Shown: one piece after another, positions 9,015-27,775 of the stretch
Layout: every line of letters begins with the position of its first letter
How positions within the stretch are numbered: position 1 is the first letter of the stretch
Virus record (IMG/VR): IMGVR_UViG_3300028048_000089
Span: 1-64,000 of that record
Length of the DNA: 64,000 nt
Source: a virus
Taxonomy: Duplodnaviria > Caudoviricetes
Reading direction: 5' to 3' (one strand)
Made by a program: the position numbers and the translations under genes
Notes under the pieces: generated by a model
The model's input: only the letters and a program-made list of their open reading frames with translations
Databases searched by the model: none
Told to the model about the DNA's origin: nothing

Positions 9015-9091
9015 TGGTGGACACAAAGGGACTTGAACCCTTAACCGACGGTTTATGAGACCGTTGCACTAACCGATTGTGCTATATGTCC
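9015..9091 (-). tRNA. tRNA with CAU anticodon (Ile2 or elongator Met), CCA encoded
   Basis: Cloverleaf: acceptor GGACAUA/UGUGUCC, D arm GCAC/GUGC, anticodon arm ACGGU-CUCAUAA-ACCGU, T arm AAGGG-UUCAAGU-CCCUU, ACCA end. Confidence 0.95.
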
Positions 9092-10535: not shown

Positions 10536-10900
10536 CAATCTTTATTATCTTCTTCTAATTTATCAACTAAGAACTTCATTAACTTCTCATCTATGACAAA
10601 ATAGTTATGTCCGCCAGGTTCAAATGCAAATGCTATACAACCATTAAATACTCTTTGTGTAAATGCTTCATCTCTATTCTTTGCAATCCACTCTTTCTTA
10701 ATAGAGAATGATTCTTTTTCACTGGTTGGTGTTTTACATTCTATAAGCAAAGATGCCTTAGAAATTAAAACGTCAGATTTATTAAACAAACCAGCCCCAG
10801 AATTTGGCTGAACAACTCCTCCAAGCATATCTGCAATTTGTGATTCTTGTTGTGATGAATAATAACGCGTTGAATTTTCATTCTTTGTTTTTTGCTTCAT
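10532..10900 (-). CDS. PD-(D/E)xK nuclease (resolvase-like)
   Basis: QE...QPNSGA...SDV...LIECK pattern. Confidence 0.7.
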   Translation of the reverse strand: MKQKTKNENSTRYYSSQQESQIADMLGGVVQPNSGAGLFNKSDVLISKASLLIECKTPTSEKESFSIKKEWIAKNRDEAFTQRVFNGCIAFAFEPGGHNYFVIDEKLMKFLVDKLEEDNKDC

Positions 10901-11861
10901 TTTTCTTCCTCTCTAAAGTTTTTCTTAATGATTCACTTGTTTTCTTTTTACTTTCTTCAGTGTGATGACGCCCTAAAAATCTTTTTGAATGTTTTAATGC
11001 TTCACACAATTTTAAAGATTGTGAAATCTTATTTTTAGTTTCTAGAGATGCTTTTTTACCATAGTTTGGATTATTTTCACCCTTGAATGATTTTCTATTT
11101 TTTAAAGCCTTTTTATAATAATCTATGGGTCTTTTTGCACACACCATCTTATACACACATCTTTTAGAGCAATAAACACCTGAACCATATTTTTTACTTA
11201 CATAATAATCAGTCATTACTTTTCCACATATTGGACATGTATGCTTTTCTAATCTCCATTTGTAAATGAAATCTTCTTCCTCTTTAGTTTTCACGCTCTT
11301 CTTTTGATTATTAATAATAAACATTTTTTCATTTCTACTTTTAAGTGCATTATTATGTTTTAATTGTTCATCTTTTGTAAATATTTTTGCTCTTTTATGA
11401 CAACTATAATTATCATTTTTACATGACCAATGAGTTCCTCTTCTTATAAAACCAATAATTCTAGTAGATACATTAAGTAGTTCACTTATATATTTCTCAG
11501 AATAACCTAAATCTAAATAATTCTTAATCAATGAACACTTTTCAAATGAGCATTTGCAATTTCCATTTCTCTCTTCACTCAATCTAGTTGAAAAACCACC
11601 ATCACTTATATTGTATCCAATATCAATATTTTTGGCATCATAGAGTTTAATCCAGTAAATCTCCCTCTCATCCATCAACTCTTTAGTCTCAACTTCTTCC
11701 AAGAGTTCTACTTGAAAATTTTCTTTACCATATTTTTTAATTGCTCTTTTAACTAAATCGCCACTTCCCAAATACTCTCTAGTAAATTGTGAACTCTTAT
11801 GTTGACCAATATAGATTTTACCATTAACTAAATTGGTTGTTTTATAGATATATCCATACAT
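10878..11861 (-). mobile_element. Free-standing GIY-YIG homing endonuclease with NUMOD3-type repeats (HEG1)
   Basis: GYIYKTTNLVNGKIYIGQH, REIYWI, GYN; C-terminal GENNPNYGKK and HTEESKKK. Confidence 0.9.
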
Positions 11862-12042: not shown

Positions 12043-12385
12043 CTGATTTTTTCTCCTTTGGGTCATCTTCCCAAAAATCATCATCATCTTGAAGTTGTTC
12101 GTATGTTTCAATAAGTTCTTTTGCATTTTCGTACTCATTTTTAGCTGCAAAACTTGAAACATACATAATCTCAGCACTATCTAACCAAACAGGGCAAACA
12201 TCATCTACAAGAGCATTTGCAAATTGAATGGCATAAACACCTTTTTGCTTAGGACTTTCATGAATAGATACAGCATGTCCATCTTCTAATAAAATTTTTA
12301 ATTGACTAAACAATGTTTCATAAAACTCTTGTTTATTTTCATAATTCGCTTTTGAGAATACAATTTTATTTGTCTTATTCATCAT
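12035..12385 (-). CDS. Hypothetical protein with acidic C-terminus
   Basis: 116 aa ORF coupled to recA. Confidence 0.6.
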   Translation of the reverse strand: MMNKTNKIVFSKANYENKQEFYETLFSQLKILLEDGHAVSIHESPKQKGVYAIQFANALVDDVCPVWLDSAEIMYVSSFAAKNEYENAKELIETYEQLQDDDDFWEDDPKEKKSDA

Positions 12386-13557
12386 TACTCTTCTTCCTTT
12401 GCAAAATCTACATTGAATGATTCACCAACATTAATATTTAACATCTTTTCAAATGCAACAATATTAGGGTCATCTTTTTGTGATAACTTGTCATAGACTT
12501 TATCATAAATCTTATGCCAAATATCTAAATGTTCTTCTAAATAAGGTTTAATGTTTTTCTTACCTCTAATCTTAATAGGTTCACCATTTTCATCACACAT
12601 TGGTTCACCTGTTTCAGGATTTAAAACAACAAAGTTACCTTGAGATGGGTTAGCAATAAAACCAAAATAAGTAGCAACATCAATTGTATCTTGTAAGATA
12701 TCAACACCTTTAGTATAAGATATGCAAGTTCTACCAAGTTTTCTATCCCATGGGCATACTTTAGTCTTTAACACAGCACATTCCATAATATAACCTGCAG
12801 GAGATTCAGCACTATTAGATAATTCATTTAAATCTTCATCAAAGAATTTACCCTTCTTTAACATAAGTCTAACTGAACAACTATGTTTCCAACCTCTACC
12901 ACCACTTGTAACTAATGGATTACCATAACCACCAATGTTTTCTCTTAATTGATTAATACCAATAAGAGTACAATTATATTTAACAAGTAATGAAGTAACT
13001 CTCTTAACAAAGTCACCTAAAACTTTTGCAATACCACCCATTTCTTTCTTTTCAAATGATTCACCAAATACTTGTTGAGAAACTAACATTGAAAGTGAAT
13101 CAATAACAACCATGCCAACTTCACCAGTTCTAATAAAATTAACAATGTCATCAAAGATATTTTCTGCAGGTTGGTCTTCCGGTCTATAACAAATTGTTTG
13201 AACAGGGTGATTATTCATATCATAACCTGTTTTCTTAGCCCAAGAAGGGTCAACAGTACATTCTAAGTCAACCCAAAGAATCTTTCTAGGGTTATCTTTA
13301 TTGTTCTTTAATTCTTTCTTTTGGAATGATGCACAAATTAAATAAGCAAGAGTTGTTTTACCACTACCTTCAGCACCACAAATTTCAACAATCTTTCTTT
13401 CAGGAAAAGAATTATATAAACAGAAGTCTAAACCAGGACTTCCTAAAGATAAAGTACCATAAGATGTTAAATCTTCAACACCTAAAGAAACAACATTATC
13501 ACCTTGCTTCTTATTAATCTTTTTTAAAATTTCTTGTAAACTTAATTCTTCAGCCAT
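12385..13557 (-). CDS. recA: RecA/UvsX recombinase
   Basis: GAEGSGKTT, VVIDS, INQLRE, TSGGRGWKH. Confidence 0.95.
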   Translation of the reverse strand: MAEELSLQEILKKINKKQGDNVVSLGVEDLTSYGTLSLGSPGLDFCLYNSFPERKIVEICGAEGSGKTTLAYLICASFQKKELKNNKDNPRKILWVDLECTVDPSWAKKTGYDMNNHPVQTICYRPEDQPAENIFDDIVNFIRTGEVGMVVIDSLSMLVSQQVFGESFEKKEMGGIAKVLGDFVKRVTSLLVKYNCTLIGINQLRENIGGYGNPLVTSGGRGWKHSCSVRLMLKKGKFFDEDLNELSNSAESPAGYIMECAVLKTKVCPWDRKLGRTCISYTKGVDILQDTIDVATYFGFIANPSQGNFVVLNPETGEPMCDENGEPIKIRGKKNIKPYLEEHLDIWHKIYDKVYDKLSQKDDPNIVAFEKMLNINVGESFNVDFAKEEE

Positions 13558-13940
13558 TATTCTACCTCACAATACACATGTATATTATTATCTTCATATT
13601 CATCATACAAATAATTCCAATGTTCTCTTTCAAGTTCCTTTACAACATCAGAAGCATATTTATCTTTTAAAAATGTTCTTAATGATAAATCTTGTAACAT
13701 CCCATATTCATCAATCTCATCTTTAAGCCATGAATCTTCAATGTCCTTAACAAATTCTCTAGCACCATCTTCTAAATACCAACTAAGAGGATTGTAATCT
13801 TTTTCATACTTTTCTTTAAATAAATATTCAATTATATCTTGAAGTGAGATATCTACATAATAAGTATAATCAAATGAATCATCTTCAAGTGGATATTCAG
13901 TACATGAAATAGAAGCACAATAAGTTAAACTAGTTCTCAT
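13557..13940 (-). CDS. Acidic hypothetical protein
   Basis: Start moved to ATG 13940 behind an AAGGAG RBS. Confidence 0.6.
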   Translation of the reverse strand: MRTSLTYCASISCTEYPLEDDSFDYTYYVDISLQDIIEYLFKEKYEKDYNPLSWYLEDGAREFVKDIEDSWLKDEIDEYGMLQDLSLRTFLKDKYASDVVKELEREHWNYLYDEYEDNNIHVYCEVE

Positions 13941-14817
13941 TAATTGTCTCCTTAGAACCATACAAGTTCAATTGCATTTCAGTTTGTCTGCTTGTAATTA
14001 ATTTTCTATATTTATTCATAGTTGTCTTTGATACCTCCCAACCGTTATTAATATAATTTTCAACATCTTCAAATTTAACATATTTAACAACAGACTCTTT
14101 AAAAACTCTAAACCTATTTTTTGTATTACTGTCATATTTCTTATTTCTTTTTGTTATATTTGGATTACCTTTAACCCAACCATCATTAAGATAATTTTGT
14201 AAATCAACTAAATTAACTGCCTTAATTTGATTTTTCTTATGAATATATACTTTACCCTTATTCTTCTTCCCTGATTTTCTTAGACTCCCAATTTTCCAAC
14301 CTTGTTTTAAATATTCATCAAGTTCCTCTCTAAATATATACTTAAATACTTTTCCATTATTTACAGTTATTTTATTTGCAATTGATTTATTGCTTTTACC
14401 AAGATGACTTTCAGACATTCTTTTTCTGACTTTTTCTTTATATTCATTATCTTGCCACTTCTTCTTGCTTATTATAGATAATTTTTCTATTGTTTCTTTT
14501 GAATGATGCTCAATTGGACAACCATCACCACCTGTAGTTAAATTATAACCAAATTCTTTTTTATTAGATTTATAATGTCTAATCCAGTACTTTTCTCTAT
14601 TATTTAATCTTTCTTTAGTATCGCACTCTTCTATCAACTCAACTTTGAAATTATCAATACCGTACTTATTCATTGCAAGATGTAAATACAACTTATCATC
14701 TTTAACTTTTGCGTGATGTTTATGTTCACTAAACCTTTTAGTAATTGACTTCTTTGTTTGACCAATATATACTTTATTCGTCAATATATTTGTTATTTTA
14801 TAAATGTTACCATACAT
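13930..14817 (-). mobile_element. Free-standing GIY-YIG homing endonuclease (HEG2)
   Basis: GNIYKITNILTNKVYIGQT, RFSEH, REKYWI, GYNLTTGG; three YLxxGW repeats. Confidence 0.9.
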
Positions 14818-15445: not shown

Positions 15446-15904
15446 TTATACAATTAAAATTGAATAATCACTTTCCATTAAAACTCTTTTCTTTATAGAT
15501 GGAATTTCAATGTAATCATAACCATTAAGTTTGTTAATATTAACACTTTTACAACCATCTTGTTTCATCTTTGTAATTGTATCTAGTGGTACATAGATGA
15601 CTCTATCATGGTCAATAAACCAAATAACAACACCAATAACCACATTCTTACAATGTCTATAACTTAATAAATCTTCATATTGAGTTAAATCACTAAATGG
15701 AAAAGTATTATCATAATGACTTTTTGTTTCAAGCATATATAGTTTATCTTTTGGAAAACATAAAAAGTCACAAGGGTTCTTAGCATTGCCTTTATAACCT
15801 GATACATTATCTCTAAGTCTTAAAATAAATGTTTCAGGAAAACATCTCAACCAATCTTTTTTAAATTGTCTCTCAAAATCTTTACCTCTATTTACTCTAC
15901 TCAT
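15446..15904 (-). CDS. recU: RecU-like Holliday junction resolvase
   Basis: NRGKDFE, PCDF, LETKS, TQYEDL. Confidence 0.8.
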   Translation of the reverse strand: MSRVNRGKDFERQFKKDWLRCFPETFILRLRDNVSGYKGNAKNPCDFLCFPKDKLYMLETKSHYDNTFPFSDLTQYEDLLSYRHCKNVVIGVVIWFIDHDRVIYVPLDTITKMKQDGCKSVNINKLNGYDYIEIPSIKKRVLMESDYSILIV

Positions 15905-16748
15905 GTTTAAATCTCCAACTAATAATTTTAGGAACACATGTTTCCCAATCTATGACATGATGTATTCTCTGATGTTGCTCACCCATCATTGATATCTTTA
16001 CACTTGAAGGCATACACATTACGGAATAGAATGACTTCAAATATGTACCATACTTCAGATAAGCATCACTGTTACCACCTTCTGTAACTTGTGTTTGCAT
16101 TTGTACTAAATCAACATTACATACTGTTAGAAAGAGTTTTCCGATAGAACCAAGTGTAGTATAGGTATTAACATCATCATTCATTCTTCCAATAAATGTA
16201 AATGGATTATCTACTTTGCAGAAAAATGAATTCATTGCTTTTCTCTTTAATTTATTTCTCCAAGCAGAACCATTCAATCCACCAATCAAATCTCCACCTT
16301 GAGCAAATGCTATACTTAAAGCCTTAGATTCTTCTAGATATTCTAACATGTATTCACACATCTTATCTAGATTCTTGATTTTATATGTTAAGAGTTTGTT
16401 ATCTTCTTCACATCTAATTTCAAATAGTTTATAGTCATCTTCTAACTCTAGAAAGTATTTTAAGTTAAGTTGCTTTGCTAATTCAAAGCAAACATTTCTT
16501 GCATACACAACTACTTTATTATTTTTAAAGTTATCACATATATCAAATGTATCAGCAACTTTTTTCTTGTCAAATACTAAAACATGCTCAACACCAAAGT
16601 TATTGATGTAAGCATCTTTAGTAGAATCTTCATTGTCAAGTATTATATAGTATTTACCAGTGTACCCTTGAGACAAGATTGTATTTACTGTATAAACTTT
16701 ATCTGGTCTACCATTTGAAAGAATGAAAATAGCAAACTCATCTAACAT
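15897..16748 (-). CDS. TAGT-like (TET-associated, GT-A fold) glycosyltransferase, copy 5
   Basis: FILSNGR, YARN, ELEDDY, RKAMNSFF, GRMNDD, KSFYSVM. Confidence 0.75.
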   Translation of the reverse strand: MLDEFAIFILSNGRPDKVYTVNTILSQGYTGKYYIILDNEDSTKDAYINNFGVEHVLVFDKKKVADTFDICDNFKNNKVVVYARNVCFELAKQLNLKYFLELEDDYKLFEIRCEEDNKLLTYKIKNLDKMCEYMLEYLEESKALSIAFAQGGDLIGGLNGSAWRNKLKRKAMNSFFCKVDNPFTFIGRMNDDVNTYTTLGSIGKLFLTVCNVDLVQMQTQVTEGGNSDAYLKYGTYLKSFYSVMCMPSSVKISMMGEQHQRIHHVIDWETCVPKIISWRFKHE

Positions 16749-16966
16749 TATTGTTTTGATTTAAATTCCATAGGTGAAACTAATTCTGATAAATCATTTG
16801 TTTCTCTAATGACTTTACCAAGATAGAATGTTGAACCATCAATATGTTCTACATATAATTTATCATCTTCAATAAAGTAACATTCAACATGAGGTAATAA
16901 TAAAGTTGTATCAATAACTTTACCATTTAAGACTTCAACATATCTCTTTAAAGAATATCTAATCAT
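16748..16966 (-). CDS. Small hypothetical protein
   Basis: 72 aa; loosely similar to 27768-28037 and 31468-31800. Confidence 0.55.
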   Translation of the reverse strand: MIRYSLKRYVEVLNGKVIDTTLLLPHVECYFIEDDKLYVEHIDGSTFYLGKVIRETNDLSELVSPMEFKSKQ

Positions 16967-17388
16967 CTTTCAACTTCACCTCTAATTCTTTCTTTTAAAT
17001 AACTACTGCTATATTTATGTTTTCTAGATAAATATACAATGTCTTTACCCATTTCAACAAGTAAGTTTTTATTTTCAAAATCTTTACCTTGATGGTCAGT
17101 ACCTAAGAAATAAATATCAAAAGGAATACTTTGAAGCATATCTCTAGCATCTTCACAATCTTCATACGGAATTACTTCATCTACACCTTTAATATTCTTT
17201 AATTGAATATATCTTTCATAAATTGTTTGAACAGGGCATTTATAATTTGGACAACAATGTAAAGCAACAATTAAATAATCACATTTAGATTTTGCTTCTT
17301 GAATTGCAAGAATATGTCCAGCATGTAACACATCTGCTACCATAGGATAAATACCAACTATTTTCTTTTTTTCAGCCATTACAATCAC
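16963..17388 (-). CDS. Glycerol-3-phosphate cytidylyltransferase-like nucleotidyltransferase (TagD family)
   Basis: DVLHAGH, ERY...VDEVIPY, RKHKYSSS. Confidence 0.85.
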   Translation of the reverse strand: MIVMAEKKKIVGIYPMVADVLHAGHILAIQEAKSKCDYLIVALHCCPNYKCPVQTIYERYIQLKNIKGVDEVIPYEDCEDARDMLQSIPFDIYFLGTDHQGKDFENKNLLVEMGKDIVYLSRKHKYSSSYLKERIRGEVER

Positions 17389-17411
17389 CTCTTTCTATTT
17401 TATTATACAAT

Positions 17412-18266
17412 TTATCTTTTAAATTTACTGCTTATAATTTTTGGAACTGCTAAATCCCAATCTATGATATGATGTAATCTTTTATGAAAAGAACCTACTG
17501 TATATATCTTTGTACAACTAGGACAAATCATAATTGAGTAGAAAGACTTAACATAAGTACCAAATTTTAAATAAGAGTCAGTTAAACCACCTTTTGTTAT
17601 TTGAGTACCAATTAAACCAAGATTAACATCAACAGTTGTAAAGAAAAGTTTACCTATAGAACCTAACTTTAAATAAGTATTGACATCATCATTAAATCTA
17701 CCAAAGAACATAAACTCATTATCAGATTTACAAAAGAATGAGTTCATCGCCTTTCTTGCTAATTTTTCTCTATACACAGGGCCGGTAGTTCCAACACCAC
17801 CAATAAAGTCTCCTGTTTGTGCGAAGCATACGGTAGTGCATTTGCTAGTTTCTAGAAATTCAATATATGTATCAATTACAGCATCTAAATCTCTAATATA
17901 CCAAGTCTCTAATTTTTTACCATTTGGTTCTCTATGAATGAAATTTGTATAATCATCCTCTAATTCTAGAAAATATTTATAGCCTAAATCTCTTGCAGTT
18001 TGGTGACAAATGTTTCTAGCAAATACAATGGTCTTGTCATCATCAAAGTTGTCCATAATGTCAAACTTCTTTAATGCTTCTGCTTTATTGAAGATGATAA
18101 TATTTTCTTCTCCAAATTTTTGTTTATATAAATCTATTTGTGAATCTTCATCATCTAAGATAATGTACCACTTACCGGTATATCCACAACGATTTAAAGA
18201 GTCAACAGTAACTAAACTATTGGCTCTACCGTGACTTAATATAAATACTACAAAATCATCTCTCAT
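17412..18266 (-). CDS. TAGT-like glycosyltransferase, copy 4
   Basis: FILSHGR, FARN, ELEDDY, GRFNDD. Confidence 0.75.
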   Translation of the reverse strand: MRDDFVVFILSHGRANSLVTVDSLNRCGYTGKWYIILDDEDSQIDLYKQKFGEENIIIFNKAEALKKFDIMDNFDDDKTIVFARNICHQTARDLGYKYFLELEDDYTNFIHREPNGKKLETWYIRDLDAVIDTYIEFLETSKCTTVCFAQTGDFIGGVGTTGPVYREKLARKAMNSFFCKSDNEFMFFGRFNDDVNTYLKLGSIGKLFFTTVDVNLGLIGTQITKGGLTDSYLKFGTYVKSFYSIMICPSCTKIYTVGSFHKRLHHIIDWDLAVPKIISSKFKR

Positions 18267-19117
18267 TATTTTCTAAACTTGCTACTAATAATCTTAGGGA
18301 CAGCAACTTCCCAATCAATTAAGTGGTGAATTCTTTTGTGTGATTGTCCCATTTCGGAAATTTTAACACAACTTGGACATAACATTACACTATAGAAAGA
18401 TTTAACATATGTACCATATTGTAAGTATGCTTCAGTAATACCACCAGCATTTGCTTGAGTTTGTGGTTGGTCTAAACACATATCTCTTGTAGTAAAAAAT
18501 AAGTAACCTCTTTTACCATAATCAACATATGCATTGACATCATCATTGAATCTACCTAAAAATTGGAATGGTCTATCTACTCTACAAAAGAAACTATTCA
18601 TTGCTTTTCTTGTTATTTGTTGAGACCAAACAGAACTACCTGTACCACCTAAGAAGTCACCAGTTTGTGCAAATGCAACACATACTGCACCTGATAAATC
18701 TAAGAAGTCTAAGTATGGTTGAATGAGTTCATCAAATTGAGTTACATATCTTGTCTTTAAAGAATCATCTTCTTCATATCTTTGTCTAAAACACATGTAG
18801 TCATCTTCAAGTTCTAAGAAGTATGTAAGACCTAATTCTTTAGCAATTCTATGAAATACATTACGAGCAAAAGTTGGAACACCTCTACCTTTGAAGTTAT
18901 CCATAATATCAAATGTTTTACCTGCTTCTTCTTTGTTGAAAATAATTATATGTTCTTCACCAAAGTTTTTAATGTATTCATCTCTTTGATTGTCTTCATC
19001 ATCAATAATGATATACCATTTACCTGTGTAATTAACTTCTTTTAAAGTATTAACAGTTCTAACATTATTGGCCCTTCCATGAGACAATATCATAATTGCA
19101 AAATCATCTCTTACCAT
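18266..19117 (-). CDS. TAGT-like glycosyltransferase, copy 3
   Basis: Same motif set. Confidence 0.75.
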   Translation of the reverse strand: MVRDDFAIMILSHGRANNVRTVNTLKEVNYTGKWYIIIDDEDNQRDEYIKNFGEEHIIIFNKEEAGKTFDIMDNFKGRGVPTFARNVFHRIAKELGLTYFLELEDDYMCFRQRYEEDDSLKTRYVTQFDELIQPYLDFLDLSGAVCVAFAQTGDFLGGTGSSVWSQQITRKAMNSFFCRVDRPFQFLGRFNDDVNAYVDYGKRGYLFFTTRDMCLDQPQTQANAGGITEAYLQYGTYVKSFYSVMLCPSCVKISEMGQSHKRIHHLIDWEVAVPKIISSKFRK

Positions 19118-19134
19118 AAACTACCTCTAATATA

Positions 19135-20001
19135 TTATACTTTAAATTTACTACTGATAATTTTAGGAACTGCATTTTCCCAATTTATGTTATGATGAAT
19201 TCTTCTATGACCAAGTCCCATCATATCAATCTTAACTGATGATGGAGATACCATAACACTATAGAATGACTTAATATATGTTCCAAGTTCTTGATACATT
19301 TCTGTATTACCACTACCAGTCTTTTGAGTTTCTTGTTGGTGCATACATAAATCTCTAAAAGTTAAGAAGAGCATACCTCTAGCACCTTCAGTAACATATG
19401 TATTAACATCATCATTCATACGGCCAATAAAAGTAAATGGTCTATCAACATTACATAAGAAAGTATTCATTGCCTTTCTTTTGATAACATCTTTCCACAT
19501 TTGACTACCTGTTCCACCAATCCAGTCACCTTGTTGACTCATTGCAATTGTAGTAATTTGTGGGCATTCTTCCATATATTCAATCATTGCATCAATTATT
19601 AAATCAAAATTATTTAAAATATATGCAGTTAAAGAAACACCATCAGGAGAATATCTCATTTTAAATTCTGAATAATCATCTTCATATTCAAAGAACCATT
19701 TAAGACCAAGATTTTTTGCAATTTCAAAACATTTATTTCTAGCATAAACAACAGAGTTTCTACTCTTATCTAAAAATCTATCACAAATATCAAACTCTTC
19801 ATTTTCTGCTTGTTTAATTCTATCAAAAACAATAACATGTTCTTCACCATAAAGTCTCTTATATTCATCTATAGTTGAATCTTCATTATCTAGAATTAAA
19901 TACCACTTGCCTGTGTAAATATGTTCTTGAAGATATTTCACAGTATATTGTGCATATGGTCTACCATGTGTTAAAATAAAAATTGCAAAATCGTCTCTCA
20001 T
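19135..20001 (-). CDS. TAGT-like glycosyltransferase, copy 2
   Basis: Same motif set. Confidence 0.75.
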   Translation of the reverse strand: MRDDFAIFILTHGRPYAQYTVKYLQEHIYTGKWYLILDNEDSTIDEYKRLYGEEHVIVFDRIKQAENEEFDICDRFLDKSRNSVVYARNKCFEIAKNLGLKWFFEYEDDYSEFKMRYSPDGVSLTAYILNNFDLIIDAMIEYMEECPQITTIAMSQQGDWIGGTGSQMWKDVIKRKAMNTFLCNVDRPFTFIGRMNDDVNTYVTEGARGMLFLTFRDLCMHQQETQKTGSGNTEMYQELGTYIKSFYSVMVSPSSVKIDMMGLGHRRIHHNINWENAVPKIISSKFKV

Positions 20002-20002
20002 A

Positions 20003-20866
20003 TTATTTCCTATAACTTGAACTTATAATCTTTGGATAAGCATTGTCTTTTGACATTTGTGGAATATATTTACCTTTCCACAATTTTGGCAAACAATAAC
20101 TTGGTCCAATCATTGTTGAATAAAATGCCCTTGTGAATGAAGATGAGTTAGCATAATATAATGCCATACCATCTTCTTTAGAATCACCACCCTTTTGAGT
20201 ATATTGTGGTGCAACTTCAACTTCAACAAAAGCAGGTGACAAGAATAATTTACCAACAGAACCATACTTAATTGCAGTATTAAAGTCTTCCATTGGCATA
20301 TTCCATCTAATTTCTTTTTTAACATCTCTAAAGAAAAAGTTAGATACAGACCTTCTTGTCAAATAACCACCAGTAATAAAACCTTCATAACCACTAAAGT
20401 AGAAGTTTGGAGTTCCAAAACCAATGCATGTTATGTCATTATTAACTAAAAACTCTAAGTAACATTCTAACACTTTATTGATATCATTAATCTTTGTTCT
20501 TAAAAGTTTCTTATTGACATCATCAACAGGTCTGAATACGAAATTATTAATGTCATCATCACACATAATAAATGCATCAAGACCAAGTACTTTAGCAACA
20601 TCTTCAATAAAGTTTCTAGCATATAACACACATGCACTTGGAATATTATTACTATCATGACCACTATCAGTTGTAATCATATAAGATTCTTTATTGAACA
20701 CAAGTAATTTATCTTGATAAATCTCTTGGTACTGCTCGTATAAAGGGTCTTCATCATCAATAACTATATAATAGTCACCATTATAATTAAGGCCCTTGAG
20801 TGTGTCTAAAGTTTTACACACAGAAGGGTTTTTATGTGATGTTATAAACAACGCATACTTAATCAT
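20003..20866 (-). CDS. TAGT-like glycosyltransferase, copy 1 (divergent)
   Basis: FITSH, YARN, MCDDD, MEDF, PKIISS. Confidence 0.7.
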   Translation of the reverse strand: MIKYALFITSHKNPSVCKTLDTLKGLNYNGDYYIVIDDEDPLYEQYQEIYQDKLLVFNKESYMITTDSGHDSNNIPSACVLYARNFIEDVAKVLGLDAFIMCDDDINNFVFRPVDDVNKKLLRTKINDINKVLECYLEFLVNNDITCIGFGTPNFYFSGYEGFITGGYLTRRSVSNFFFRDVKKEIRWNMPMEDFNTAIKYGSVGKLFLSPAFVEVEVAPQYTQKGGDSKEDGMALYYANSSSFTRAFYSTMIGPSYCLPKLWKGKYIPQMSKDNAYPKIISSSYRK

Positions 20867-20868
20867 AA

Positions 20869-21309
20869 TTAGTCTTTATTTGCAGGAGTTGTTTGATTAT
20901 GGAAATCTTTACTCACAGGGGTACCTGTTTCTTCCATAATCTTTTTAATGTTTTTACTTAACTTAACATAACCATTAGCAATAGCATCATCAATATCAAT
21001 GATAACTAAGGCACTTTGTTCCATAAGTTCTTGCATTTCTTTACTTGCATGAGCATAGTAATCAGCAATTTTAGAGTAAGTAAACACTATATGTCTTGTT
21101 GCACCTAATCTAAGGAATTCTTTTTCTTCTTCACTAACATTTGATGCATTAATATTTCTAAGTAATTCTTTATACTTAGTTAAATTCACTAATGAATCTA
21201 ATCTTGGACATTCTGCGCTTGGAAGATATTGTGGAACACCAACTTTAGTAGTGTACTTTTTATCTTCTTCAGTTTCTTCAACGCCAAATAAGTTAAATAA
21301 ATCGTCCAT
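20869..21309 (-). CDS. Glycosyltransferase-associated partner protein
   Basis: EEKEFLRLGATRHIVFTYSKIADYYAHA...MEQSALVIID resembles a domain commonly encoded beside phage TAGT genes; start placed at MDDLFNLF behind GGAGG. Confidence 0.6.
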   Translation of the reverse strand: MDDLFNLFGVEETEEDKKYTTKVGVPQYLPSAECPRLDSLVNLTKYKELLRNINASNVSEEEKEFLRLGATRHIVFTYSKIADYYAHASKEMQELMEQSALVIIDIDDAIANGYVKLSKNIKKIMEETGTPVSKDFHNQTTPANKD

Positions 21310-21323
21310 AAACACCTCCAAAA

Positions 21324-22442
21324 TTATCTAATTTGTTTTTGAGAGAGAACATTTTTAACATTGCCGAAAGAGATAACAACAGCTTGATTATCACCAAAAC
21401 TTAAATTAAAGACTTGTGAATCAAGTGTAGAAAGCATACTCTTAACAACCTCTAAATCTAAATTTGCAACATATGGTGTTTCAACATTACCAGATGTATA
21501 TGCAACAACCTCATTATTTGTTCTTCTATGGTCATAAATAGTGACACAAGTCTCAGAGAATTCAAAGATACCGATGCCTCTATTTAAAGTATTTGTTGTA
21601 TCAAACAATAATAATCTATCAATTGCATCTAAAACATCTTTTTTATCAAAAGTAACTGTATTGTCAAAAACTTTATTTGCTCTACCTCTAATAGCTGCAA
21701 CAGGGAAAGAGTTAACTAAAGATTGGTCATTTGTTAAAATAGATGTAATTTCAACATTGTCTTGAGCAAACATAACTCTTGTTTGTGCAATACCGCTAAC
21801 ATCTTCAAAACCGAATGTAACATTAACATCACTATCTTTAAATAATTTAAAGAGTTTAACTAATTTTGGAGTTAACATAACTTTGATTGTTGTTGGTAAT
21901 GCAAATGAGTTAACACATGCACTAGAATTTGTGAATGTTAAACAACCTTCTTGGTCTAAGTAATAGAGTTTTTGAACTTGTTTTGTAGCATTAACATTAA
22001 TTTCTCTACTATTGTTATTTAAGATTGTCATTAATGTTGCACCTGGAACAACAAAACTAGATGTTGGATTACTAACTTTAATTTTTGGTAACACAACCAT
22101 TGAATCAACATCAAACTTTAATGGGAACTTATATGTACCATTTGCTTTAACAACAAGAGCAGAATCATTAGTTGTAAGTTCAACTGTCTTTGTAGTAATC
22201 TTACTAATTAATGCTAAAAATAATTTTGCATCAACAACAGCATGAATTGAATCTTCATTATCTAAAGGTAAAGACACTTTCACATAGTATTCACCATTAG
22301 TAACATTTAAATCTAAAACTTTGCCATCAGCAACTAATTCAACGGTGTCATTAAATGCAACATTCTTTAATGCAGAGTCAGTATCAACAGCACCGACAAT
22401 GCTCTTGCAAACTTCTTGGAATTTTTCCGCTTGTAAAATCAT
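21324..22442 (-). CDS. dnaN: DNA sliding clamp (beta subunit)
   Basis: 372 aa, three-domain beta-clamp pattern; clamp loader genes present in the window. Confidence 0.8.
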   Translation of the reverse strand: MILQAEKFQEVCKSIVGAVDTDSALKNVAFNDTVELVADGKVLDLNVTNGEYYVKVSLPLDNEDSIHAVVDAKLFLALISKITTKTVELTTNDSALVVKANGTYKFPLKFDVDSMVVLPKIKVSNPTSSFVVPGATLMTILNNNSREINVNATKQVQKLYYLDQEGCLTFTNSSACVNSFALPTTIKVMLTPKLVKLFKLFKDSDVNVTFGFEDVSGIAQTRVMFAQDNVEITSILTNDQSLVNSFPVAAIRGRANKVFDNTVTFDKKDVLDAIDRLLLFDTTNTLNRGIGIFEFSETCVTIYDHRRTNNEVVAYTSGNVETPYVANLDLEVVKSMLSTLDSQVFNLSFGDNQAVVISFGNVKNVLSQKQIR

Positions 22443-23603: not shown

Positions 23604-24563
23604 TTATATTTTATACCACTTTATATTTTCTATTATTTTAGTACAATTATCTTCTTTAGAATGTTTTTTAACTGATGAGCAGCTAGGGAGATATGTAATA
23701 GCCTTTCCTTGAATTGATGCTTTTATCTTTCTTTGTAAAGTTGTTTCAGCATATTTATCCCCAAATGGTTTATAATTATTATACCACCAAATAGTTGCAT
23801 CTCTAATTGTTTTAAAATCTTTTCTTATTTTATTATCAATAATACAATAACAACCCACACCTCGTGAATTAAATCTATTCATTTGTGGCTCATTTGTTGT
23901 CATCATTTCTTGTCCACATCTTTGAGCATAACTTCTCTTCTCGTATTTTAACCACCCATTGTTTAAATATTCTTGCAGTTTTTCAGGTCTAACTCTTATT
24001 GTCTTACTACCCTTATAAATATACACGAGTGTTTTTTGGTTTTCGGATATCTTTTTTCTTATTTCACTAGAAAATAATTCTCCTCTTTCTCTCTTTTTCT
24101 TCATTGTAAGCGATATTTTGTTTCTCACATACTCACTTCTCATAGAGTTTTTATGTCTTTCTCTATACACATCATTATACATAGGATTATGAAGACTGCA
24201 CTTCTTTCTACATTCCTCATACTCTGATTGTAAAACATCTAAATCACTATAAGTAAAATGTTTATTCATATAAGATAGAGCAATAAAATTGTTATAAAAG
24301 AAAGTTTCAGTTGATGAACATAATGCTAACAATAAATGAGCAATAAAATGGTCCTTATATTGTAAATTTATATAATTCTCCTTTGAATTATCAACATCTA
24401 AATTATTTTCTCTATAATAAAATCTTGGAATAATGTGATGTTTTTGAGTTTTAAATTTTTCTCTTTTAGTTTCTCTGTTTGATTCAATAAGTTCTACATA
24501 CTTATCTAAATACTCATTGTCAATACAAAGACCAATATCTAGTAATTTTTCTTTAAGTGTCAT
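23604..24563 (-). mobile_element. Free-standing HNH homing endonuclease (Mob-like; HEG3) between the polA halves
   Basis: HHIIPR...N...DHFIAH; NUMOD3-like SEYVRNKIS and SSEIRKKIS; ATG at 24563 behind AAGGAG. Confidence 0.85.
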
Positions 24564-24615
24564 ATAAATCTCCTTATACTTCACTTAATTTAGCAAGTGA
24601 TTTTTCGGCTCAAGA

Positions 24616-27066: not shown

Positions 27067-27564
27067 TTATTTACCAGTGGAACCAAAGCCACCAATACCT
27101 CTTTCGGTTTCATTTAATTCATCTACTTCTTCAAATTCAATAGGAAGAGTAAACCCTAATTTGATTTGGCCAATCCTATCTCCAACTTTATACTTTTCTT
27201 TACCTGGAATTACTTCATAGAAATAGGCCAATACTTCACCTCTATAGAGTTCATCAATAGTTCCTTCACAGTTACTTAATATAAGCCCTGTTTTCCAAAT
27301 TGAAGAACGAGGCCTAAAGTCTAGTGATAGTTTAACTTTGGAATCAGACACCAATTCTTCTAGATTCAATCCCCACTGTACAAACATACCAAATATTAGA
27401 GATGGTTTTCTAACTACCTCAAATGCAAGACCAATACCATATTTCCAAATACCGGGTTCTACTTCTTCACATGAAGTTGCATAGACATCATAACAAAAGT
27501 CTTCATCATGAACCTTCGTAGGGGTTTTTGCTAAGTCATTTAATTTTTTAATTTTTACTATCAT
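27067..27564 (-). CDS. dut: Trimeric dUTPase
   Basis: PRSS, GTIDELYRGE, GDRIGQ, RGIGGFGSTG. Confidence 0.93.
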   Translation of the reverse strand: MIVKIKKLNDLAKTPTKVHDEDFCYDVYATSCEEVEPGIWKYGIGLAFEVVRKPSLIFGMFVQWGLNLEELVSDSKVKLSLDFRPRSSIWKTGLILSNCEGTIDELYRGEVLAYFYEVIPGKEKYKVGDRIGQIKLGFTLPIEFEEVDELNETERGIGGFGSTGK

Positions 27565-27574
27565 ATAACCTCCT

Positions 27575-27775
27575 TTATACTGGTATATTAAGTGCATGAC
27601 ATAACCATATTGCTTCAAATAATGCTACTGCAAATGAGACAAAGAATAAACCCCCTTTAGCAGGTATGCATTTTATTTTGTCATCTCTATATTTATATAC
27701 AATAACACTAAGAGGAATAACAACTGCTAATCCCAATATTCCTACATAAATCATTTCAAGTACAAATTCATTCAT
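27575..27775 (-). CDS. Small membrane protein
   Basis: Two TM segments. Confidence 0.55.
   Translation of the reverse strand: MNEFVLEMIYVGILGLAVVIPLSVIVYKYRDDKIKCIPAKGGLFFVSFAVALFEAIWLCHALNIPV

Follow-up and report, generated by a model that had tools for sequence, protein, structure and literature searches.

Glycosylation of phage DNA ranks among the major counter-defences and also yields enzymes for epigenetic sequencing; all of its proven cases begin with 5hmC, 5hmU, or 5-hydroxy-C. The founding member of PF20691, the Pfam family TAGT (TET-associated glycosyltransferase), is the beta-glucosyl-HMC-alpha-glucosyltransferase of phages T2 and T6, a soluble GT-A enzyme of about 280 aa from a lytic phage that adds a further sugar in a system of multiple glycosyltransferases (GTs). 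The T-even enzymes require a dCMP hydroxymethylase together with an alpha- or beta-GT, and no partner protein is known for their TAGT enzyme. In the metavirome BGCs that encode TET/5mYOX-associated GT-A enzymes, several successive GTs produce mono- to tri-saccharides on 5hmC supplied by a C5-methylase and a 5mYOX, and the neighboring genes encode ParB-like proteins, polymerase, clamp, terminase, and cytidylyltransferase (Pyle et al., bioRxiv 10.1101/2023.12.21.572611). The characterized TAGT members, the T2/T6 enzyme and the TET-associated GTs, act on DNA, and a survey from 2026 counted 288 phages with solitary TAGT homologues among 753 that encode GTs, leaving the function of these homologues open (PMC13216743).

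There is also precedent for coupling phage DNA-modifying enzymes to other proteins. The alpha-GT of T4, a GT-B enzyme, binds the clamp gp45 directly and is thus physically coupled to the replisome (Sommer 2004; PMC13216743). The thymine dioxygenase 5mYOX176 is activated on dsDNA by its cognate ParB-like protein, ParB176, in a specific pairing for which both the NBD and the CTD are required (O'Toole et al., PNAS 2026, PMC13229309). In a further case, a DNA GT receives its heptose from a phage cytidylyltransferase. Outside DNA modification, the nearest solved proteins are TarP, a wall-teichoic-acid GlcNAc-transferase encoded by an S. aureus prophage and associated with lysogenic conversion, and TagD, which functions in CDP-glycerol synthesis.

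We analyzed a window of 64,000 nucleotides, the whole stretch of DNA considered here, from an uncultured phage (positions 1 to 64,000 of IMG/VR record IMGVR_UViG_3300028048_000089). Its DNA-replication operon contains five TAGT genes, with the clamp gene directly upstream of the array (Table 1). The genes of the array overlap or abut one another and no minus-strand terminator-like site was found within it, so that a single transcription unit is plausible. Among about 107 loci compared, this array is the largest, and all others hold three TAGT copies or fewer. The initial annotation had described five paralogues of about 285 aa lying between dnaN and recU together with a cytidylyltransferase and a partner ORF, and each of these elements was identified, the paralogues being five minus-strand ORFs of 283 to 288 aa. 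The ARN, (E/D)DD, and PKIIS motifs that it listed proved invariant across all five when these were aligned, GRxNDD and KSFYS were present in four, the exception being T5, and the reported lack of membrane segments agreed with a maximum 19-residue Kyte-Doolittle score of 1.33.

Table 1. Genes of the array and its flanks (positions in the window; minus sign, minus strand)
Feature	Position	Strand	Supporting match
RecU-like resolvase	15446-15937		phrog_843, E 2e-18; Pfam RecU match below threshold
TAGT paralogue T1 (type A)	15897..16748	-	PF20691, E 8.7e-32
72-aa ORF	16748..16966	-	no Pfam, PHROG, or NCBIfam match
Small cytidylyltransferase-family enzyme with HxGH motif	16963..17388	-	PF01467, E 4e-12
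TAGT paralogue T2 (type A)	17412..18266	-	PF20691, E 1.7e-35
TAGT paralogue T3 (type A)	18266..19117	-	PF20691, E 3.3e-35
TAGT paralogue T4 (type A)	19135..20001	-	PF20691, E 3.6e-32
TAGT paralogue T5 (type B, divergent)	20003..20866	-	PF20691, E 3.5e-23
Partner protein ORF	20869..21321	-	C-terminal part of phrog_620 only
Beta-type sliding clamp, bacterial type	21324..22442	-	12-homologue profile versus PDB, E 1e-16

All five ORFs matched PF20691 with 83 to 123 bits, well above the curated gathering cut-off of 27.5 bits, and each also matched phrog_842, so that they share both Pfam family and PHROG with the T2/T6 enzyme. The contextual feature of the family, a TET/JBP or other maker of hydroxylated pyrimidines nearby, was not found at this locus, but this association is contextual rather than structural, and membership in PF20691 stands. 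The two aspartates of the GT-A DxD motif, D105 and D106, were invariant in 55 homologues and in the five paralogues, which retain the other invariant residues as well. An AF2 model of T3 (pLDDT 89.9) had a GT-A fold, and its top Foldseek matches, TarP (first, E 3e-6), K4CP, ColGalT1, and SunS, were all GT-A enzymes; the nucleoside glycosyltransferase AvpGT was also among the fold matches. The array enzymes resemble the GTs of Pyle et al. and the trypanosome JGT in their GT-A fold, in R...DDD...EDY/F-type motifs, and in having TarP as best PDB match. Sequence identity to TarP is about 10%, and since the proven phage 5hmC DNA GT-A enzymes also have TarP as top PDB match (bioRxiv 10.1101/2023.12.21.572611), this likeness is one of fold only.

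Pairwise identity was 48 to 57% among T1 to T4 but only 24 to 30% between these and T5, and the paralogues form two ancient types of TAGT. In the careful tree, T4 and T1 were sisters (support 100/84) and T2 was sister to T3 plus L013_9992 (99/93), and T5, of the divergent second-copy lineage (type B), clustered on long branches with the additional copies in L013, L082, L011, L040, and L057. T3 was 86% identical to L013:9992-10843 and, judged by sequence, is the orthologue of the sole type-A copy in a 149-kb relative.

Of all components of the locus, the ORF between T5 and the clamp gene, which the initial annotation under-rated, is the best conserved and the most diagnostic. It abuts T5 on the same strand and encodes 150 aa from a TTG or 146 aa from an ATG at 21309, the latter probably being the true start. 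The protein matched phrog_620, a ParB-like family, through its C-terminal part alone, and by this measure it corresponds to the C-terminal half of a ParB-like protein of phages, a putative ParB-derived helical domain. The AF2 model had a core with pLDDT of 87 to 98, for which no fold match was found in the PDB. Its conserved motifs are an N-terminal xLFG and YTxKxxxPQYxP, the latter with an invariant Tyr and Thr in a low-confidence, predicted-disordered, and probably flexible segment. The partner of the present locus is of the short form, and the ParB N-terminal (CTPase-fold) domain, PF02195, was absent from G000, G001, and G002.

Homologues of the partner adjoined a TAGT gene in 76 of 80 related viral loci, and their identity in relatives was 77 to 82%, compared to 42 to 65% for the PolA and clamp of the same relatives. 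In a representative library, the domain formed 1,388 clusters at 50% identity, and only four architectures were found: stand-alone, ParB_N+partner, partner+TAGT, and ParB_N+partner+TAGT. A clamp or PolA gene lay within 6 kb of the short form in 19 of 29 loci but in none of the 41 loci with the ParB-fused form, which is placed before the terminase. The stand-alone partner occurs between PolA and clamp, in an order that recurs across phages (PolA, partner, one or more TAGT genes, clamp), and replisome-embedded cassettes typically carry the short form. The module is widespread, usually with one to three TAGT copies, and is carried by viruses of E. coli, Vibrio, Lactobacillus, Nocardia, and Haloarcula; T-even phages were absent from the 36 phage records matched (tblastn, E <= 1e-5). 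By sequence and gene order, the locus belongs to an uncharacterized class consisting of a probable ParB-derived adaptor and an orphan TAGT, and with five TAGTs, a partner, a donor-activating enzyme, and a replisome operon it is the most elaborate example among the loci compared. The BGCs of Pyle et al. have similar neighbors, but the present array is larger and its partner domain is obligatory.

The cytidylyltransferase-family enzyme probably makes a nucleotide-activated donor. Its best PDB match was TagD (1coz, E 8e-11), and its HxGH motif is present, but the RTxGISTT motif of TagD has diverged. With the NCBIfam equivalogs for glycerol-3-phosphate cytidylyltransferase (TagD) and heptose-1-phosphate adenylyltransferase (RfaE domain II), scores of 52 and 55 bits fell short of the respective cut-offs, 165 and 181, and only the generic PF01467 domain model passed its cut-off. 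Homologues occurred in 14 of the 80 loci, 12 of them fused to a His_Phos_1 phosphatase and located between ParB and TAGT, and the L013 homologue was 84% identical. The 72-aa ORF travels with this enzyme; it was 71% identical in L013 and lay downstream of the cytidylyltransferase in L117 as well.

The initial annotation had reported that neither a TET/JBP enzyme nor a hydroxymethylase was visible in the window, and this absence extends to the whole 115-kb contig, which is about 70% complete, and to near-complete relatives. No TS superfamily (PF00303), TET/JBP (PF12851), ThyX (PF02511), C5-methylase (PF00145), or other 2OG oxygenase (PF13640, PF13532) was found on the contig. Eight related genomes, of which six are at least 90% complete and three have terminal repeats, likewise gave no match to TS or TET/JBP; the control genomes gave no positive control for TET/JBP. 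In addition, G000, G001, and G002 gave no match to the alpha-GT (PF11440) or to the beta-GT (PF09198), the latter model again being without a positive control. The proteins that accompany the T-even enzymes and the C5-methylase and 5mYOX of the BGCs of Pyle et al. are not detectable here, so that the sole chemistry proven for the TAGT family cannot operate at this locus as known.

The reading of the initial annotation, a multi-step DNA hypermodification system built by TAGT-like enzymes, is supported in part: the TAGT/GT-A assignment and the absence of the acceptor-making enzymes hold. We consider it somewhat more probable than the alternatives taken together that the locus encodes DNA glycosylation embedded in the replisome, a partner-plus-TAGT cassette expanded to five transferases. 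A DNA target is strongly favored by the genomic setting, in which the array lies in the replisome operon and is accompanied by the ParB-derived partner, a protein joined to TAGT in some other loci, and what the hosts of the module have in common is DNA, not envelope chemistry, which also counts for such a target. The partner would be an obligate adaptor or activator, enabling the soluble GT-A enzymes to act on double-stranded phage DNA while it is being replicated. By analogy with T4 alpha-GT and gp45 and with ParB176 and its thymine dioxygenase, it may dock on the neighboring beta clamp, which would then be a platform for the transferases. Coupling to the clamp in T4 is by direct binding, whereas here it is suggested by gene adjacency and by xLFG, which fits the clamp-binding QL[SD]LF only loosely and is carried by ParB-fused forms too. 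ParB176 is similarly ParB-like and phage-encoded and has no obvious DNA-binding domain, but it acts on a dioxygenase rather than a GT and needs both of its domains, whereas the present partner would act through its C-terminal domain alone, with no ParB N-domain genome-wide. Donors may be host UDP-sugars together with the product of the phage cytidylyltransferase-family enzyme, and T5 most likely differs from T1 to T4 in the sugar, the linkage, or the position in a short glycan that it serves. The paralogues may also, as proposed in the initial annotation, build an oligosaccharide or polyol chain, or cover different donors or sequence contexts. The resulting DNA, heterogeneous or multi-sugar, could withstand attack by restriction enzymes, CRISPR nucleases, and glycan-specific DNA glycosylases. 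In T4, two GTs with different products protect against stereospecific defence, and multiple GTs per phage give robustness against glycan-specific defence (PMC13216743), which provides a rationale for paralogue arrays such as this one. If DNA is the target, the array would be a natural experiment in glycan diversification by phages facing glycan-reading defences, and the puzzle of the acceptor suggests either a base-activating enzyme that is not yet known or a new chemistry of glycosylation.

A rival explanation with conventional chemistry, in which 5hmC, 5hmU, or 5-hydroxy-dC is made by an unrecognizably divergent enzyme or by a gene in the missing 30% or so of the genome and then extended to a T6-like or longer glycan, would be consistent with the many window ORFs that lack annotation, with the thousands of phage 5mYOX-like sequences that PF12851 misses (PMC13229309), and with a divergent ThyX-like ORF 5 to 6 kb from TAGT in some relatives. 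However, G000-G003 and G006 lack this ORF, and its alignment shows no canonical RHR motif that is apparent by eye. In addition, the relative G002, which is 99% complete, has the same cassette (partner, T3, and cytidylyltransferase 82%, 86%, and 84% identical, respectively). No TS, TET/JBP, other 2OG oxygenase, or C5-methylase occurs in this genome, in five more with a completeness of at least 90%, or in two complete reference phages. Phages of 32 to 38 kb with ParB and TAGT alone leave scant room for a hidden enzyme, and we regard this explanation as quite unlikely. We give the same low credence to a more novel reading, in which a clamp-tethered partner, five TAGTs, and a CDP- or ADP-linked donor would add a multi-residue sugar or polyol-phosphate during replication to DNA without a pre-installed hydroxymethyl or hydroxy base, the acceptor being a canonical base, the backbone, or a new acceptor from an unrecognized enzyme. 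If this is true, the chemistry of the DNA modification would be new, as would such a role for a ParB remnant.

Targets other than DNA were also weighed. It is unlikely, although less so than either of the two readings above, that the TAGTs glycosylate a protein. Such a protein could be the partner itself, primed in the manner of glycogenin at YTxKxxxPQYxP, or a DNA-binding protein of the replisome or the host that the partner recruits. The conservation of the partner beyond that of PolA and clamp, its invariant Tyr and Thr in a probably flexible segment, and the lack of any enzyme making an acceptor base are all consistent with such a role, and two of the GT-A matches, ColGalT1 and SunS, are protein or peptide transferases. 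GREB1, which is related to TAGT, is reported to glycosylate a protein. Conversely, all characterized viral TAGTs act on DNA, the ParB N-domain fusions and the placement near PolA and clamp or before the terminase indicate DNA, and a self-glycosylating primer has no obvious need for five transferases in a replication operon. If the target were nevertheless not DNA, both the family name and the current PHROG annotation would be misleading for hundreds of phages. The match of the TAGTs to TarP and the closeness of the cytidylyltransferase to TagD could instead suggest glycosylation of teichoic-acid-like polymers via CDP-glycerol, and the match to AvpGT could suggest glycosylation of a nucleotide or immune signal, but we judge such envelope or small-molecule targets very unlikely. 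The TAGT proteins are soluble, their partner is ParB-derived, and their genes lie in replication or packaging operons rather than in a setting of lysogenic conversion. The module also occurs in Gram-negative and haloarchaeal phages, whose hosts have no teichoic acids, and this host range excludes teichoic acid as its general target.

The initial annotation had described five TAGT-like paralogues in this region, and when the profile search that it proposed was run, all five minus-strand ORFs (T1 to T5) matched the TAGT family PF20691 with scores of 83 to 123 bits against a cut-off of 27.5; each also matched phrog_842. The motifs it had listed were borne out by alignment, with ARN, (E/D)DD, and PKIIS invariant in all five and GRxNDD and KSFYS present in four, and, as it had stated, none of the five contained a membrane-like segment. 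Equivalents of all nine residues that are invariant in a 55-sequence family alignment (D42, Y48, F60, R85, A92, D105, D106, D193, and I276 in T3 numbering) were retained in T1 to T5. The AlphaFold model of T3 (pLDDT 89.9) had a GT-A fold, and its best match among solved structures was TarP (E 3e-6), which is also the top hit for phage GT-A enzymes proven to glycosylate 5hmC in DNA (Pyle et al., bioRxiv 10.1101/2023.12.21.572611).

Identity among T1 to T4 (type A) was 48 to 57%, versus 24 to 30% between these four and T5 (type B). A careful maximum likelihood (ML) tree built from 86 homologues paired T1 with T4 as sisters (support 100/84), placed T2 as sister to T3 plus the 86%-identical T3 orthologue of a 149-kb relative (99/93), and grouped T5 on long branches with the extra copies of other multicopy phages. 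The best tree placed T1 to T4 and the relative's copy (L013_9992) in a single clade without support (10/0), so that the supported type A groupings are these two only. Judged by these identities and tree placements, at least two old TAGT types co-occur in the array, and type A appears to have expanded in the present phage. A third, very divergent type (approximately 270 aa; PF20691 E 3e-13) was seen at loci L039, L063/L064, and L106, where it has its own short copy of the partner (112 to 120 aa) upstream of the standard partner and TAGT pair; these loci hence carry two tandem partner/TAGT pairs.

The window is the initial 64 kb of a 115,328-bp IMG/VR viral contig from an uncultured phage; the contig is approximately 70% complete, has 28% G+C, and carries nearly all of its genes on the minus strand. 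Approximately 70 window ORFs were scanned with family libraries, and the resulting gene order agreed with the position given by the initial annotation, between the clamp and a RecU-like resolvase and in the company of a partner ORF and a cytidylyltransferase. The genes from PolA to RecU overlap or abut with no minus-strand terminator-like site between them; a promoter and terminator scan of the sequence gave counts near the shuffled-sequence level. The surrounding 40 kb form a replication and recombination module with SSB, a dUTPase-like protein, primase, a DnaB-like helicase and its loader, a UvsX-like recombinase, clamp-loader subunits, and SbcCD.

Genes of the TAGT cassette and its immediate neighbors, in the direction of transcription
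Feature	Position	Strand	Order
PolA, interrupted by HNH endonuclease	26184-22482	-	first
Beta-type sliding clamp	22442-21324	-	after PolA
Partner ORF (alternative starts)	21321/21309-20869	-	after clamp
TAGT T5	20866-20003	-	after partner
TAGT T4	20001-19135	-	after T5
TAGT T3	19117-18266	-	after T4
TAGT T2	18266-17412	-	after T3
Cytidylyltransferase-family enzyme	17388-16963	-	after T2
72-aa ORF	16966-16748	-	after cytidylyltransferase
TAGT T1	16748-15897	-	after 72-aa ORF
RecU-like resolvase	15937-15446	-	after T1

We compared this array with related loci. Among the best 80 TAGT loci from IMG/VR, 60 had one TAGT copy, 17 had two, and one had three, and the maximum in a further 29 loci, retrieved with a type B profile, was also three; none of the other loci, of about 107 in all, thus has an array as large as the five copies found here. 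The closest relative, the 149-kb genome G002 (99% complete), has the order partner, type B, T3 orthologue, cytidylyltransferase, 72-aa ORF, clamp, and RecU. Since only type B and the T3 orthologue are present there, T4, T2, and T1 occupy three separate extra positions in the present phage. When 15897-21321 was compared with the relative's locus (L013:8725-11543), the partner was 82%, T3 86%, and the cytidylyltransferase 84% identical; with the 72-aa ORF included, these genes spanned 71 to 86%, versus 48 to 56% for PolA, clamp, and RecU. The type B TAGT, which lies between the conserved genes, was only 34% identical. Across three relatives the partner was 77 to 82% identical and PolA, clamp, and RecU 42 to 65%. 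A conserved cassette within a diverged backbone may point to exchange of the cassette, to selection of very unequal strength, or to a combination of the two. To the phage TAGT glycosylation systems already known, this locus adds an array that is larger than the others surveyed and made up of two types, a cytidylyltransferase and 72-aa ORF whose pairing is conserved, and the contrast between cassette and backbone.

The match of the partner ORF (150 aa), upstream of T5, to a ParB-like PHROG was confined to the C-terminal third of that family. In the 80-locus survey a partner homologue directly adjoined the TAGT in 76 loci, and the partner is the diagnostic component of the system. Phages that encode a replisome of their own carry its short form (112 to 150 aa), usually arranged as PolA, partner, one to three TAGTs, clamp, and Cas4-like/RecU. 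In the long form (240 to 310 aa) the domain follows a genuine ParB/Noc-type N-domain, in small siphophage-like genomes with the order ParB, TAGT, (radical SAM), and terminase. PolA or clamp lay within 6 kb at 19 of 29 short-form loci and at none of the 41 long-form ones (Fisher p = 3e-10, computed over loci that are related by descent and so not independent). Cultured long-form carriers include Rac-like E. coli phages, L. gasseri phi jlb1, L. delbrueckii c5, Nocardia NTR1, and the haloarchaeal virus HHTV-2; in Vibrio phages of approximately 190 kb, a small ORF, a candidate partner by its position, precedes the TAGT in a replication context. The radical SAM enzyme (320 aa, with generic MoaA/SPASM-like similarity; L045:6123-7082 and approximately 11 similar loci) is encoded directly after the TAGT and before the terminase genes in these ParB-form cassettes.

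An exhaustive profile search returned 1,388 partner-domain clusters (50% identity), of which 794 scored E <= 1e-30, and the domain lay nearly always at the C terminus of the protein. The architectures found were stand-alone, ParB_N plus partner, partner plus TAGT, and ParB_N plus partner plus TAGT, and none of them fused the domain to another enzyme family. By ancestry the partner is a ParB derivative, and some copies form one protein with TAGT. Its core of approximately 80 residues is predicted to be a small helical domain (pLDDT 87 to 98) for which no solved-structure relatives were detected: Foldseek gave no match (best E 1.1), VIA-align wide gave Z <= 3.8, and PDB sequence matches were confined to the ParB N-domain that the long forms carry. 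The ESM Atlas had no match either. Ahead of the folded core lie an xLFG motif, at the N terminus, and a YTxKxxxPQYxP motif. Because xLFG is kept in both short and long forms, we rejected as a clean story that the phage clamp replaces the function of the ParB N-domain.

The cytidylyltransferase-family ORF (141 aa, with HxGH) had TagD as its closest PDB match (E 8e-11) and scored far under the equivalog cut-offs of TagD and RfaE domain II. Since a phage cytidylyltransferase is required for 5hmC heptosylation by a DNA GT (Pyle et al., bioRxiv 10.1101/2023.12.21.572611), the natural reading is that this is a putative donor-activating enzyme. Homologues were found in 14 of the 80 loci, and in two other phages the 72-aa ORF accompanies the enzyme. 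Twelve of the 14 are fused to a histidine-phosphatase domain (CobC/dPGM-like; L048:9037-9996 and 11 similar loci) and lie between ParB and TAGT, which hints that the donor at these loci comes from a bisphosphorylated precursor.

The initial annotation saw no TET/JBP or hydroxymethylase in the window and proposed a genome-wide look for base-activating enzymes. That absence extends to the whole contig: no TET/JBP, ThyX, other 2OG oxygenase, or C5-methyltransferase was detected (the TET/JBP model had no positive control in the control genomes), nor any gene of the thymidylate-synthase superfamily, which includes dCMP/dUMP hydroxymethylases and 5-hydroxy-dCMP synthase. Because the contig is incomplete, the searches were repeated on relatives with the module: G001 (91% complete), G002, G003 (100%, terminal repeats), G004 (92%), G005 and G006 (each 100%, terminal repeats), and the complete phi jlb1 and HHTV-2. 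TET/JBP or TS-family genes, PF13640, PF13532, and PF00145 were found in none of these eight; alpha-GT, beta-GT (for which, too, the control genomes offered no positive control), and ParB_N were absent from the present contig, G001, and G002. Many phage 5mYOX sequences escape PF12851 (O'Toole et al., PMC13229309), and a conventional acceptor-making enzyme hidden from such models is, with known types found in neither the contig nor the relatives, quite unlikely. Were DNA the target, the acceptor could be a conventional base made by an unrecognized enzyme or something new; we found no paper on glycosylation of canonical DNA.

Two candidates were set aside. A ThyX-like ORF (239 aa, a faint 12.9 bits; L031:13131-13850, also L039, L040, and L057), 5 to 6 kb downstream of the TAGT and with no canonical RHR motif apparent by eye in its alignment, was found only in 65- to 75-kb relatives; it lies near the TAGT in G004 and G005, is absent from the present genome, G001 to G003, and G006, and might make an acceptor in those relatives alone. 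The second candidate, a kinase-like P-loop (Walker A) protein of approximately 190 aa, adjoins the partner at L011:7732-8292 and L031:6230-6820 and is fused to the TAGT N terminus (473 aa) at L037:9446-10867 and L051:9443-10864; its similarity to Pfam Ploopntkinase3 is weak and subthreshold, and the present genome has none.

The interpretation of the initial annotation is thus supported in part: the five TAGTs stand, and DNA as their target rests on context, namely family biochemistry, the partner, cassette placement, and host range. On this contextual case and its precedents, we consider replisome-coupled DNA glycosylation somewhat probable. The ParB-derived partner would activate the TAGTs on dsDNA, as a ParB-like activator does for a phage DNA-modifying enzyme (O'Toole et al., PMC13229309); the transferase system would couple to the sliding clamp, to which a DNA glucosyltransferase is known to bind (PMC13216743); and the array may guard against glycan-specific defence, as several GTs per phage do elsewhere (PMC13216743), so that each step has a precedent. 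We found no paper on ParB with TAGT. Glycosylation of proteins by the TAGTs is unlikely, given that known TAGT-family biochemistry acts on DNA and that the cassette lies between polymerase and clamp or just ahead of terminase. Very unlikely is an envelope or small-molecule target, as the hosts are Gram-negative and Gram-positive bacteria and a haloarchaeon, which have DNA, not envelope polymers, in common.

Mobile endonucleases have heavily invaded the replication module of the window. The family-A polymerase is split into two ORFs (522 and 354 aa) with an HNH homing-endonuclease ORF (23604-24584) between them; PolA is also split in L013 and L082 and is intact in L009 and L011. Two paralogous GIY-YIG-type homing-endonuclease ORFs (10878-11861 and 13930-14817, minus strand) flank the UvsX-like recombinase gene (12385-13557). 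In the dUTPase-family ORF (27067-27618, minus strand, 183 aa), the C-terminal 80 residues alone match dUTPase models and the N-terminal 100 have no assignment. The module also contains a lone tRNA-Met (CAT) gene (9015-9091, minus strand).
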